Shown: piece after piece, positions 43,146-50,663 of the stretch
Layout: each line of letters opens with the position of its first letter
Numbering within the stretch: the stretch's first letter is position 1
Assembly (NCBI RefSeq): GCF_988243305.1
Contig: NZ_OZ547136.1
Length of the DNA stretch: 64,000 nt
Direction: 5' to 3' (one strand)
Made by a program: the position numbers and the translations under genes
The notes under the pieces: generated by a model
Database searches by the model: none
What the model was told of the DNA's origin: nothing
What the model saw: only the letters and a program-made list of their open reading frames with translations

Positions 43146-46826
<3,681 letters not shown>

Positions 46827-46852
<26 letters not shown>

Positions 46853-47372
46853 TCAGCAACCCCGGTATCAGTTCATCCAGCGCGGCTGCTTTGTTCATGG
46901 CTTTGATGATATCCCGTTTCAGGAAATCAACATGTCGGTTTTCCAGTTCCGGAAAACGCCGCTGCACCGACAGGGGGATCCCGTCGAGAATACTGGCAAT
47001 TTCACCTGCGATCCGCGACAGCACGAAAGTACAGAATGCGGTTTCCACCACTTCAGCGGAGTCTCTGGCATTTTTCAGCTCCTGTGCGTCGGCCTGCGCA
47101 CGCGTAAGTCGATGGCGTTCGTACTCAATAGTCCCTGGCTGGAGATCTGTCTCGCTGGCCTGCCGCAGTTCTTCAACTTCCCGGCGCAGCTTTTCGTTCT
47201 CAATTTCAGCATCCCTTTCGGCATACCATTTTATGACGGCGGCAGAATCATAAAGCACCTCATTACCCTTCCCACCACCCCGCAGAACGGGCATTCCCTG
47301 CTCCTGCCAGTTCTGAATGGTACGGATACTCGCGCCGAAAATGTCAGCCAGCTGCTTTTTGTTGACTTCCAT
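46827..47372 (-). CDS. Nu1: Terminase small subunit Nu1
   Basis: 181-aa ORF beginning MEVNKKQLADIFGASIRTIQNWQEQGMP. Confidence 0.95.
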
Positions 47373-47379
47373 TGTTCAT

Positions 47380-47600
47380 TCCACGGACAAAAACAGAGAA
47401 AGGAAACGACAGAGGCCAAAAAGCCCGTTTTCAGCACCTGTCGTTTCCTTTCTTTTCAGAGGGTATTTTAAATAAAAACATTAAGTTATGACGAAGAAGA
47501 ACGGAAACGCCTTAAACCGGAAAATTTTCATAAATAGCGAAAACCCGCGAGGTCGCCGCCCCGTAACCGGTCGGATCGCCGGAAAGGACCCACGAAATGA
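47380..47600. other. cos region (cosB, cosN, cosQ)
   Basis: Sequence closely resembles the lambda cos region in reverse orientation. Confidence 0.7.
47550..47561 (-). other. cosN 12-nt cohesive end
   Basis: aggtcgccgccc is the reverse complement of the lambda cohesive end GGGCGGCGACCT. Confidence 0.7.
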
Positions 47601-47767
47601 TAATTATTATCATCTATATAAGGTTTATCACAACATGTGTGTACGCCATCAAACCACGAGAAATAATCAATTATGACGCAGGTATCGTATTAATTGATCT
47701 GCGTCAAATTAACGTAAAAGCAACTTCTGATAATACAAATCAGCAACACTGAATATGGGGAAACATT

Positions 47768-47953
47768 ATGTCATCAAAGAACAGAACCCGCAGAACAACA
47801 ACCCGCAACATCCGATTTCCAAACCAGATGATTGAACAAATTAACATCGCTCTTGATCTGAAAGGTTCAGGAAACTTTTCAGCGTGGGTTATTGAAGCCT
47901 GCAGAAGAAGGCTGTCAACAGAGAGTTCGGGTATGAATTACATAATTAAGTAA
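47768..47953 (+). CDS. Small hypothetical protein, possibly ribbon-helix-helix DNA-binding
   Basis: 61-aa ORF with GGGGAA Shine-Dalgarno; basic N-terminus followed by a beta-strand/two-helix pattern (IRFPNQMIEQINIALDL...FSAWVIEACRRRL). Confidence 0.4.
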   Translation: MSSKNRTRRTTTRNIRFPNQMIEQINIALDLKGSGNFSAWVIEACRRRLSTESSGMNYIIK

Positions 47954-48085
47954 CATGGTGTTCACAGAACACGCAGTTACCGGACACATCAGTTTTCCAT
48001 TCGCTCCCTGGCAGTACAGGCTTCCCCTCTGACGGGATAGCCTGAAAAAATAACACAGAAAATTATTTGTTATAATTAATATAAC

Positions 48086-48226
48086 TTACTCAAAAAAAAG
48101 CGACGAGAAAATCAGCATCAACGAACAATAAGCGCCAATACGTGATAACAAATGGCAGCCATATTTATCTGCAGTATAAGCAATGGACAGGATAACCACA
48201 CCAGAAACCGTCAGCATAAAATCCAT
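48086..48226 (-). CDS. Small hydrophobic peptide (46 aa), hypothetical
   Basis: Hand-translated: MDFMLTVSGVVILSIAYTADKYGCHLLSRIGAYCSLMLIFSSLFFE; GGGGAAG Shine-Dalgarno; below the 60-aa cut-off of the ORF track. Confidence 0.25.
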   Translation of the reverse strand: MDFMLTVSGVVILSIAYTADKYGCHLLSRIGAYCSLMLIFSSLFFE

Positions 48227-48576
48227 TTGAACTTCCCCGGACAAAATCGACTCATCTAAAGATTTACAGCTCTTTTTATTATCAATATGTTAAAAGTAAA
48301 ATAAACAGATGTTCAATAACACGAATACAAAAACGTGCTGAAATTCAATGAATCCATTTCTGTGTCATCAATTAATAGTGATAAACATCCGGCTTCTTCC
48401 ACCATCGCACCGGACAGGCGACTATGAGGGGACAACGCCGCGCTCCGTTAACGCGGTAAACCCCGGTGTGTATCGTTTTTGATTATCCCCGCACACTCGC
48501 GCAGAGGAGTCTCCCTGTCGGGCTGCGGTCTCTGTTAATGAGGGAATACAGCGACGATACGGCGCATCAACAAAAC

Positions 48577-49044
48577 TTATTTCAGGCACTGAGTACGGAT
48601 ATATTCCTGCGCCCCTTCCAGTTGCTTGTGCATCGTCATCAGCCGCTCTCTGAGGGTGAAATAATCCCGTTCAGCGGTGTCTGCCAGTCGGGGGCCGGTT
48701 GCATTATCCACGCGGGCGGTGCCGGTGGCTTCACGCACGGGACCTGGACAGGTGGCGTTGATACGCAGGCGCTTACGACCAGCGGCAACGTCAGCGCGAA
48801 GAGTTTCATTTTCAGCTCTCGCATCGGCTAATTCCCTCGAGTATTTTGCATCGAGCGCAGCAACATCACGCTGACGCATCTGCATGTCAGTAATTGCCGC
48901 GTTCGCCAGCTTCAGTTCTCTGACATTTTTGTCGCGCTGGGCTTTGTAGGTAATGGCGTTATCACGGTAATGATTCAGCCCCAGACTAAGCGCACCACAG
49001 GCCACCAGCATGACAATAATCACCACACACAGAACACGGTTCAT
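48577..49044 (-). CDS. Rz: Spanin inner-membrane subunit Rz
   Basis: ORF 48577..49128 trimmed to the [38 protein letters not shown] start. Confidence 0.9.
48639..48824 (-). CDS. Rz1: Spanin outer-membrane lipoprotein Rz1, embedded in Rz in the +1 frame
   Basis: 61-aa ORF with lipobox (VVSAC) and Pro-rich tail ([30 protein letters not shown]). Confidence 0.85.
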
Positions 49045-49262
49045 ATCACCACCAACGGATTGCCCAGACCAGAACAGCAATGGCCACAATACGAATGGCA
49101 AATGCCATTGCCCGAATAAGTTCAGCACTCATCTTTTTAAAGTTCACGATTTCAGCGCAATGACCAGTTTTGCCAGCCCATATAGCATCGGAGACACAGC
49201 AATACCAACAGCCACCCACTTAATAGCAAAAGCCAGCGCTCTGCTGATGTCATCAGTCACTG

Positions 49263-49394
49263 TCACCCCAGCAGCCCCGACGAAGACAACATCACCCAGG
49301 CGAGGGACAGAAAAAGAGCAACCAGCATTAGTGAAAATGAAATACCGACAATCACACACAGGACCTTTGCCGGCGTTATGAGTTTGTCTGACAT
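49263..49394 (-). CDS. Small hydrophobic peptide (43 aa), hypothetical
   Basis: Hand-translated: MSDKLITPAKVLCVIVGISFSLMLVALFLSLAWVMLSSSGLLG; AGGGG Shine-Dalgarno 6 nt upstream. Overlaps the longer alternative-frame ORF 49144..49416. Confidence 0.3.
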   Translation of the reverse strand: MSDKLITPAKVLCVIVGISFSLMLVALFLSLAWVMLSSSGLLG

Positions 49395-49563
49395 AGCTAC
49401 CCCTTAATTGCCACAATTAACTGGGATACTACCCATAAAAAAGGGATGCTCCAGACCAGCAAAAATTTCCAGTTTGGTAATTGACTAATCATGAGTCGCA
49501 ACTCCCTAATCAGTTTGCTAAAATCAATCAAGGCAGCCTCCCATAGCTTACTGCCATAAAAAC

Positions 49564-49600
49564 AAAACCCCGCTTGCTGCCAACAAACGGGGTTTTTACT
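49564..49600. terminator. Hairpin terminator downstream of R
   Basis: aaaaccccg...cggggttttt with T runs on both strands. Confidence 0.55.
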
Positions 49601-49686
49601 TTTATTCACTTACGTTTCGCCAGTTCGCAGGATTTCGTGTTATCCGCCCGCGTGGCCATGCCTTATTTTTCAGCAAAATATTCTGC

Positions 49687-50220
49687 TTATCTGTCGATAC
49701 CCCAGCACGCCAGCGCGCTCTCCTGGTCACGACGGGATACCTGACCGTAGCAGTTGTTTGAACGAATACGGCAGTCTCTGCCACCGTCCTTAATCCACCA
49801 GCGAATCGCCTCACACGCTCCCCTGCGGTCACCAGCATTCAGCCGCTTATAAAACGTCGACGGGAAACACTTACCGGGGCCAATGTTATAGGGACAGAAT
49901 GACGCTATACCCGCTTTCTGTGGTTCGGTCAGTGGAACTTTAATATTGCGCTCCACCCATGCCAGCGCCTTATCCCGTTCAATGGCATTAACCTGGTCGC
50001 ATTTTTCCTTCGACAGTTTCATGCCCGGAATAACAGGTTTACCATCCACCATTGTGGCACCGCGGCAGATGGTCCAGATACCCGCACCATCACGGTATGC
50101 CGTTGTGTGGTTACCTTCTTTTTCATCCAGAAACTGGTCGAGAATATCAGGCGCAGGCGCACCGATGGCAATCAACGCCAGAACGGCAGCCGACAGGCCA
50201 TATTTGATTTTGGTGTTCAT
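49687..50220 (-). CDS. R: Endolysin (lysozyme family) with N-terminal signal-anchor-release-like segment
   Basis: 177-aa ORF; N-terminal weakly hydrophobic Gly/Ala-rich segment (LSAAVLALIAIGAPA). Confidence 0.9.
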   Translation of the reverse strand: MNTKIKYGLSAAVLALIAIGAPAPDILDQFLDEKEGNHTTAYRDGAGIWTICRGATMVDGKPVIPGMKLSKEKCDQVNAIERDKALAWVERNIKVPLTEPQKAGIASFCPYNIGPGKCFPSTFYKRLNAGDRRGACEAIRWWIKDGGRDCRIRSNNCYGQVSRRDQESALACWGIDR

Positions 50221-50276
50221 GGATATTTATCAGGATTTATCGGTTCCGAATCCCTGGATATGTTAAATCTTCAGCC

Positions 50277-50303
50277 CGCCAGCGGTAGGACACTGGCGTT
50301 TTT
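50277..50303 (+). terminator. Hairpin plus T run between the R start and the 104-aa ORF
   Basis: cgccagcggtaggacactggcg followed by ttttt on the plus strand; function unclear. Confidence 0.35.
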
Positions 50304-50348
50304 CCTGATGGCTGAAATATATCTGACAATTTCAGTAGAGGATTAACC

Positions 50349-50663
50349 ATGCATAACGATCAACATAATTATGATTTATGCCTGCAAGCCATAAATGAGC
50401 GGGTAAAATCAGAGTGCCTCTTACTCCTCCCACAAGAACACGATGCAGTAAAATCCATTCAGGCTGAGCCGTATGGACATCTCACACCTGTGACTCTCGG
50501 CATTATCGCCAGAGCATTAACACAGCCCATGCTTATGCGTATTAAGACCAATATAAATAACTGGTTGAATGAAGAATTAAGCTACCTTGATTGTGAGTGG
50601 GACAATCATTACGCAAAAACACAAAAAGAACGCATCTTCAGTCGATTATCCAGCAACAGATAA
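50349..50663 (+). CDS. Hypothetical protein (104 aa), antisense to the late operon
   Basis: ORF with GAGGA Shine-Dalgarno 7 nt upstream; AT-rich codon usage; no family recognised. Confidence 0.45.
   Translation: MHNDQHNYDLCLQAINERVKSECLLLLPQEHDAVKSIQAEPYGHLTPVTLGIIARALTQPMLMRIKTNINNWLNEELSYLDCEWDNHYAKTQKERIFSRLSSNR

Follow-up and report, generated by a model that had tools for sequence, protein, structure and literature searches.

A ylcI-family gene and a convergent, probably exchangeable reading frame between cos and Rz of a lambda-like prophage

A stretch of 64,000 nucleotides from contig NZ_OZ547136.1 (assembly GCF_988243305.1), referred to here as the window, contains a lambda-like prophage whose late genes read on the minus strand, in the order lysozyme, Rz, the interval studied here, cosN, the cosB repeats, Nu1 and terminase A. 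Between cos and Rz (47600-48576) lie a 61-aa open reading frame (ORF) on the plus strand and, converging on it, a 46-aa hydrophobic ORF on the minus strand, each with a GGGGAA Shine-Dalgarno (SD) sequence 5-6 nt from its ATG, as a preliminary description of this DNA had reported (Table 1). That description also likened the pair to a small toxin plus regulator module, a comparison that is not borne out by the present analysis. We favor, with a probability of roughly 60%, the reading that this is an ordinary lambda-like right-end accessory region holding two independent units, the gene ylcI and an exchangeable cargo ORF.

The 61-aa protein is a member of the YlcI/YnfO family, as judged from matches in three profile libraries: NCBIfam NF041551 (YlcI/YnfO; 35.2 bits, curated cutoff 30), Pfam PF13132 (DUF3950; E=1.4e-18 over residues 21-49) and phrog_949, a function-unknown family (E=9e-32). 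The motif NFSAWV at residues 36-41 is nearly invariant, and the genomic context next to the packaging genes matches that of ylcI/nohD and ynfO/nohA in K-12. The two ORFs carry PGAP annotations in prophages of E. coli O104:H4 and O157:H7 that are nearly identical to this one: WP_001329960.1 ('YlcI/YnfO family protein') for the longer and WP_000347013.1 ('hypothetical protein') for the shorter. A match to a known non-regulatory family had been named beforehand as something that would speak against a regulator. A known family was indeed matched, and it is one without known function, regulatory or otherwise. The K-12 genes ylcI and ynfO are listed among the uncharacterised 'y-ome' genes, and a literature search on ylcI, ynfO, DUF3950 and both protein accessions found no functional study.

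Judging from codon comparisons, ylcI is clearly a genuine gene on which purifying selection is strong: comparison with two diverged alleles gives a dN/dS of 0.06-0.07, and the substitutions fall mostly at third codon positions. By its distribution, too, it belongs to the constant part of the lambda right end. In 4347 of 5426 complete E. coli genomes there is a match to at least part of the interval, most commonly to 47560-47902, which comprises the region next to cos and roughly the first 45 codons of ylcI. Homologs are present in lambda, DLP12 and Qin. The lambda copy (NC_001416, complement of ~48148-48303) is unannotated in the reference record, shows 90% amino acid identity, and is preceded by the palindrome and Fur box also found in the window; the lambda right end as a whole aligns to 47562-47902 with 86.5% identity.

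The YlcI/DUF3950 family is small (106 clusters at 50% identity). Its divergent members are found beside integrases, downstream of cdtABC, or in a divergent, regulator-like position in integrase-primase islands. These contexts fit a small DNA-binding regulator of mobile-element accessory regions, not a dedicated antitoxin. As separate observations, distant DUF3950 proteins at locus L012 (4001-4390) and locus L013 (2786-3313) lie in integrase-primase islands that resemble phage satellites, and at locus L140 (830-3689) a DUF3950 homolog directly follows cdtABC, which encode cytolethal distending toxin, and reads in the same direction.

The fold of YlcI was approached by modelling. The DUF3950 ribbon-helix-helix (RHH) domain covers ~aa 10-54 and follows the Arc-like pattern xIRFPxxMIEQINIAL...GSGNFSAWVIEACRRRL, with the general form xIRFPxxxhxxIxxxh...G..NFSxhhxxxh. 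An AlphaFold2 (AF2) monomer shows an extended N-terminus and helices at 19-32 and 37-55 (pLDDT 66), and the informative top matches of this monomer in Foldseek are all RHH proteins (ParD2, HicB, NikR, Arc, MazE and ORF56; 1.4-2 A rmsd, E-values of at least 1.4). Since RHH proteins fold as dimers only, YlcI was also modelled as a linked dimer, with two copies joined by a linker into a single chain and a matching self-paired alignment. In this AF2 model each half consists of a strand (10-18) and two helices (19-32 and 37-54), with a core pLDDT of 80-86 and a pTM of 0.63. Its best PDB match in Foldseek is TraY (E=0.017, probability 1.0, TM 0.55-0.70 over ~112 columns), a natural tandem-RHH protein of the F-plasmid relaxosome. 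The earlier call of a ribbon-helix-helix-like protein is thus right at the level of the model, from which DNA binding is predicted. Of the HMM and structure searches for RHH/Arc/CopG folds proposed at that time, the route through structure models succeeded and the sequence route did not: DUF3950 is the sole Pfam match to YlcI, and its HicB-like match in PHROG has E=0.012.

Two sequence features upstream of ylcI may provide some clues regarding its control. The 7-1-7 Fur box is the sole perfect match to that motif in the window; its distance to the start of ylcI is 155 bp, and to that of Nu1 226 bp. It is kept in lambda, DLP12, 2G7b and SHP24, where the central base alone varies. In K-12, the Fur site at nohA (22.3 bits) is gel-shifted by Fur, and the one at nohB (25.3 bits) is predicted (Chen et al. 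2007, PMC2189734). The palindrome between the Fur box and ylcI, a candidate operator, does not vary among cos-type relatives. In cos-type phages these two elements would be the likely ylcI control sites. The gene, with its conserved N-terminal domain, is a fixed neighbour of the packaging genes and reads away from cos against the late operon, and we infer that its product would bind specific DNA sequences as a dimeric regulator and would be expressed in the lysogen from a promoter of its own. As an observation made by eye, the cos-type DNA upstream of ylcI (47700-47726) shares TTGATyCTGC, TAACGTA and AAGCA with the 5' coding end of an HNH gene (locus L003, 1430-1468); these shared motifs may be a remnant of a common ancestral arrangement.

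The second unit is best understood from the slot that it occupies. Alternative contents across 120 viral contigs holding a conserved 187-bp block on the Rz side, with cargos listed by tblastn, support the earlier view of the Rz-to-cos interval as a cargo slot. Between ylcI and the block these contigs carry nothing (~28), the 46-aa ORF (18), a gene for a TonB-C-like lipoprotein (15-17) or ybcV (13), and each content occurs with either packaging module, Nu1-type or HNH-type. Where the slot is empty, the block abuts ylcI. Three joints delimit this mosaic. The left one lies just upstream of the ylcI start, with either cos-Nu1 or an HNH endonuclease plus TerS beyond it; an internal joint falls at about ylcI codon 49 (47915-47953 in the window); and the right one is the block itself, conserved whatever its neighbours. 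The slot is bounded by the coding sequence of the conserved ylcI N-domain and by the block. In lambda and DLP12 homologs of ybcV/ybcW occupy the slot, and bor lies beyond the block. No homolog of Bor, YbcV, YbcW or a TonB-like protein was detected by tblastn in the window, in agreement with the earlier remark that a bor-like gene is missing here. The GC content of the cargo stretch is 25-42% versus 51-66% in the flanks. The interval had been described as about 1 kb of AT-rich, otherwise non-coding DNA; this holds for 47600-48380 (GC 25-42%) and fails for the conserved block (GC 51-59%). On these grounds the 46-aa ORF is a probable exchangeable cargo (moron) gene in the slot between the ylcI N-domain and the block.

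Another occupant of the slot, in the same position and orientation, is a gene for a 108-aa lipoprotein annotated as TonB family (locus L005, 1589-1915, E. coli UC4224), which could interfere with TonB-dependent uptake or phage entry. Just past the stops of the 46-aa ORF and of this TonB-like cargo there are AT-rich near-palindromes, TTATAATTAATATAA (window 48070-48084) and TGATAATTAATTTCT (L005 1564-1578), each with 3 mismatches to the Fur-box motif. In lambda, lambdap79, which is the ybcW homolog beside the unannotated ylcI, came out as essential in a CRISPRi screen, against earlier genetics (PMC10695390). This score may reflect a polar block of late transcription toward cos.

The 46-aa ORF is confined to E. 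coli: no relatives were found outside this species in 5.8 billion proteins plus a phage collection, where the matches amount to 13 near-identical protein clusters in E. coli and two phage records. There is no match in NCBIfam, Pfam, PHROGs, PADLOC or the PDB. The cargo DNA (47954-48380) is present in 733 of 5426 E. coli genomes as two alleles that are 97-100% identical, plus one at ~80% in strain SHP24 (locus L011), the sole informative comparison for coding tests. The predicted peptide has a GRAVY of 1.1, with hydrophobic segments at residues 3-17 and 30-45 around a polar loop. We consider it likely, from the allele comparison set out below, that the ORF is a real gene for a two-helix membrane peptide, and there is moderate evidence of its translation. 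As a separate cargo with its own conserved AT-rich upstream DNA, it would most likely encode a two-helix hairpin peptide of the inner membrane. A 35-nt stretch in this upstream DNA is identical in both diverged cargo alleles and is probably the promoter region of the ORF. A plus-strand promoter-like site (TTTACA-17-TATGTT, 48263-48291) overlaps it, and our own promoter and terminator scan of the cargo gave weak promoter-like matches alone and no convincing terminator.

Several results weigh against the reading of two independent units or against parts of it. First, single-sequence and profile searches of the PDB with YlcI gave nothing useful, and, given the very small size of the domain, the E-values in Foldseek are weak. 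Second, the published Fur site is assigned to the promoter facing nohA, the Nu1 homolog, and not to ylcI (PMC2189734), and HNH-type phages, in which the ylcI start is 41 bp from the HNH start codon, have neither the Fur box nor the palindrome. Third, the coding evidence for the 46-aa ORF depends on one divergent allele. The naive dN/dS of 0.31 against this allele had to be discarded as coding support, being undone by a simulation with the observed 18:6 transition/transversion ratio, in which the number of amino acid changes is not significantly low (p=0.28). Fourth, the C-terminal tail of YlcI, after ~aa 49, goes with the cargo type (46-aa ORF, TonB-like or YbcV), independently of the packaging module, which could be a sign of a functional link. 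However, 3 of 12 tail residues are conserved between the two peptide-cargo alleles while the peptides are 71% identical, the TonB-type tail persists where the TonB-like cargo is absent, and one cargo is an exported lipoprotein. From these comparisons, the association appears better explained by physical linkage to the recombination joint than by a binding interface.

Among the alternatives, the one that survives best is that the 46-aa ORF is not a gene at all but has arisen by chance in young AT-rich cargo DNA, and that whatever this DNA does produce, if anything, would be an RNA or a regulatory site. We regard this as unlikely. It is true that homologs are confined to E. coli, that most copies are 97-100% identical and hence uninformative, that a random ORF remains open in 68% of simulations, and that the non-coding upstream stretch is better conserved than the ORF. 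Yet the SHP24 allele, at 79% nucleotide and 71% amino acid identity, keeps the ORF, its ATG and its SD sequence and has no internal indel, whereas the flanks have indels. Although amino acid changes are not significantly few, the encoded peptide has kept its character: the simulation gave p=0.10 for conservative replacements, p=0.015 for hydrophobicity kept or raised, and a joint p=0.0015, and a naive Fisher test of synonymous versus non-synonymous changes gave p=0.01. Both other same-strand frames across the ORF contain stops, and its central loop, ADKYG..LLSRIGAYC, is conserved.

A second and more doubtful alternative makes YlcI a dedicated switch for the slot cargo, acting by DNA binding or by convergent transcription (an excludon), and possibly iron-responsive through the Fur box upstream of the gene. 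The cargos listed by tblastn mostly converge on ylcI (the 46-aa ORF and the TonB-like gene in viral contigs; ybcW in K-12), but in Qin and in YbcV-type contigs the next gene (ydfO/ybcV) is co-directional with ylcI, and ylcI is equally conserved next to an empty slot. One alternative cargo is TonB-like and in that sense iron-related; the Fur box, however, is absent from HNH-type phages. No YlcI operator-like motif was found to be shared upstream of the different cargos, whose upstream regions are unrelated. A terminator scan of the 132 bp that separate the two stop codons found no convincing intrinsic terminator. In K-12, ybcW and ylcI are listed from RNA-seq as a pair with overlapping convergent transcripts, i.e. 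an excludon. With two independent units, the convergence of ylcI and the 46-aa ORF would follow from the slot layout and not from a partnership. If the two were coupled at all, the likeliest route would be an overlap of their convergent transcripts, because no convincing terminator separates the genes.

The feature nearby that is least explained is not the gene pair itself but the 187-bp block. The block is present in 398 phage records, among them those of Stx1 and Stx2 phages, Salmonella phage ES18 and lambda-like phages, so that 48381-48567 is conserved across hundreds of lambdoid phages; its central ~45 nt are nearly invariant. In a hairpin called P1 (48388-48392 paired with 48410-48414), 4 of the 5 pairs show compensatory changes. 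The three helices tested have 23 double-change cells in all, 20 of which fall in P1; shuffles would lead one to expect 3.7, and slid controls gave 0-6. At the position of a second hairpin in the block, other variants have unrelated hairpins. Single-sequence folding of 48375-48576 was not unusually stable on either strand (z-scores -0.5 and 0.0), and the block has no promoter or terminator in our scan and no family match in Rfam. The preliminary description had pointed to 48227-48570 and to the spacer 47954-48085 as places to look for structured RNA. In the former a conserved element with one covarying hairpin was found; for the latter, the poor conservation of the spacer between cargo alleles argues against it. 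Two readings of the block were tried and rejected. VT2-Sakai orf48 and Stx2-II ORF C87 cover the block, yet the reading frame is broken by stops and frameshifts in other variants, and the block is therefore no conserved ORF; and the loop of P1, GATGGTGG, is one mismatch from a Chi site, with a sequence that is not conserved across variants.

A bolder combination of these elements would make the lambda right end a cargo-docking cassette, anchored by the ylcI N-domain and the block, with YlcI as an RHH cargo switch tied to iron through Fur and with the block as a new structured RNA. If this were true, the docked cargo, such as a membrane peptide or a TonB-like lipoprotein, would be toggled by convergent transcription or by direct binding. 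We consider the whole combination improbable.

Still less credible is the idea that YlcI takes part in DNA packaging or in the function of cos, perhaps by binding beside cosQ or by modulating terminase. Indeed, ylcI always adjoins a packaging module (cos-Nu1 or HNH-TerS), and one distant DUF3950 homolog is fused to a terminase-small-subunit-like helix-turn-helix domain; other distant homologs, however, occur away from terminase genes, and ylcI reads opposite to the late operon. A minimal lambda cos is not known to need anything beyond cosQ-cosN-cosB. Moreover, 933W-type and ES18 phages have the block and lack ylcI.

The toxin plus regulator idea of the preliminary description, in which the 46-aa peptide would be a type I-like, membrane-damaging toxin controlled or neutralised by YlcI, fares worst of all and is very improbable. 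As a type II pair, the genes would be expected in a co-directional operon with a known toxin family and joint inheritance. They instead converge from opposite strands, their stops 132 bp apart, and so do not form an operon; the peptide matches no toxin family in the libraries searched; and ylcI is present in ~4300 genomes versus 733 for the peptide, so that in most genomes it occurs without the peptide and also beside unrelated cargos. Many antitoxins do combine an RHH N-domain with a variable C-terminal tail, the YlcI tail goes with the cargo type, and the structural matches include the antitoxins ParD, MazE and HicB (the last also in the weak PHROG match). However, the tail is far less conserved between the cargo alleles than the peptide, as described above, and one alternative cargo, an exported lipoprotein, is beyond the reach of a cytoplasmic tail. 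As a type I toxin, the peptide has the expected small size and hydrophobicity and a predicted membrane location, but it has two hydrophobic segments versus the single one typical of such toxins. No direct repeat was found between its upstream region and the ORF through which a divergent antisense RNA could pair with the peptide mRNA, and there is no Rfam match. The sole conceivable antisense RNA could be a read-through of ylcI overlapping the 3' end of the peptide transcript, conceivable because no terminator intervenes.

The remaining features of the locus are collected in Table 1. We take 47552-47563 to be cosN from comparison with the lambda cos sequence, and the repeats at 47397-47509 are presumably R sites, as in lambda cosB. 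An Rfam scan of 46500-50500 at E<=1 gave two chance matches alone, mir-578 and PVT1. The prophage small RNAs AgvB, AsxR, Esr41 and the Pas sRNAs were considered as a match and rejected; they are located in the Q-holin region and have no match here.

Table 1. Features in and around the interval between cos and Rz (window positions)
Feature	Position	Strand	Details	Basis
Terminase A gene	44927-46852	-		
Nu1 gene	46827-47372	-		
cosB, presumed	47397-47509		three Nu1-binding R-type repeats (47397-47408, 47442-47453, 47498-47509)	repeat families D3, I1, I3
cosN, presumed	47552-47563	-	12-nt cohesive-end sequence aggtcgccgccc, the reverse complement of GGGCGGCGACCT	sequence
Fur box	47598-47612	.	perfect 7-1-7 match TGATAATtATTATCA; between cosQ and ylcI	motif scan
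Palindrome	47666-47698	.	33 bp, 13-nt arms ATCAATTATGACG..CGTATTAATTGAT; upstream of ylcI	repeat scan
Shine-Dalgarno of ylcI	47757-47762	+	GGGGAA	sequence
ylcI/ynfO-family gene	47768-47953	+	61 aa; ATG 47768, stop 47953	ORF list, profile matches
Spacer between both stop codons	47954-48085		132 bp; poorly conserved between alleles	promoter/terminator scan, allele alignment
46-aa hydrophobic ORF	48086-48226	-	ATG 48226, stop 48086	ORF list, PGAP WP_000347013.1
Shine-Dalgarno of 46-aa ORF	48233-48238	-	GGGGAA; kept in SHP24 allele	sequence
AT-rich stretch	48272-48306	.	35 nt, identical in both diverged cargo alleles; 45-80 nt upstream of 46-aa ORF	alignment with L011
187-bp block	48381-48567	.	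conserved, GC-rich, non-coding; Rz-side bound of slot	
Rz spanin gene	48577-49035	-	last of lysis cassette	ORF list; PGAP 'lysis protein' in near-identical locus L001
Rz1-like ORF	48639-48824		embedded in Rz	
Lysozyme gene	49687-50220	-		late-gene order

The novelty of these findings is low for the gene pair and modest for the 187-bp block. For the pair the stakes are low as well: one gene belongs to a named family without known function, and the other is an orphan hypothetical. Nevertheless, the analysis gives a predicted fold and a testable DNA-binding activity to a DUF that is found in most E. coli genomes and is unannotated in the lambda reference. It also defines the boundaries of a recombination slot that exchanges lysogenic-conversion genes in relatives of Shiga-toxin phages, and places an experimentally known Fur site in its right-end context. 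Finally, it brings to notice a non-coding block that is conserved widely, contains a covarying hairpin and matches no Rfam family.

Comparison with known systems puts the two units in perspective. With type I systems such as tisB/istR-1, zorO/orzO and hok/sok, the 46-aa ORF shares the format of a short hydrophobic prophage ORF with a long AT-rich upstream region and a divergent promoter-like site; unlike these systems, it has two hydrophobic segments, no toxin family and no antisense repeat found, and its neighbour, the candidate regulator, is a protein. It resembles lambdoid morons (lambda bor, ybcV/ybcW and the TonB-like lipoprotein gene) in its accessory region, AT-richness, own upstream DNA and exchangeability. 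Unlike these morons, it is far smaller, is without a known family, and is predicted to encode an inner-membrane hairpin and not a lipoprotein. YlcI, for its part, shares with the RHH proteins Arc, Mnt, CopG, ParD and TraY a predicted strand-helix-helix topology that would dimerise via the N-terminal strand; unlike the solved RHH proteins, it has no significant sequence match, and it has an Arg/Thr-rich N-terminal arm and a variable tail. The Fur box of the window shares with the nohA and nohB Fur sites of K-12 its position (~230 bp upstream of the Nu1 homolog) and its 7-1-7 motif, although those K-12 prophages are cryptic, whereas the prophage in the window, like lambda, is intact. The closest counterparts are K-12 YlcI (DLP12) and YnfO (Qin), which belong to the same family, likewise lie by a Nu1 homolog (nohD/nohA) in this orientation, and share the upstream region with its Fur box, with ~87% DNA identity to the window over 47560-47902. 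Unlike in K-12 YlcI and YnfO, the C-terminal tail here is STESSGMNYIIK, and the downstream cargo differs: ybcW/ybcV or ydfO/gnsB and others in K-12, the 46-aa ORF in the window.

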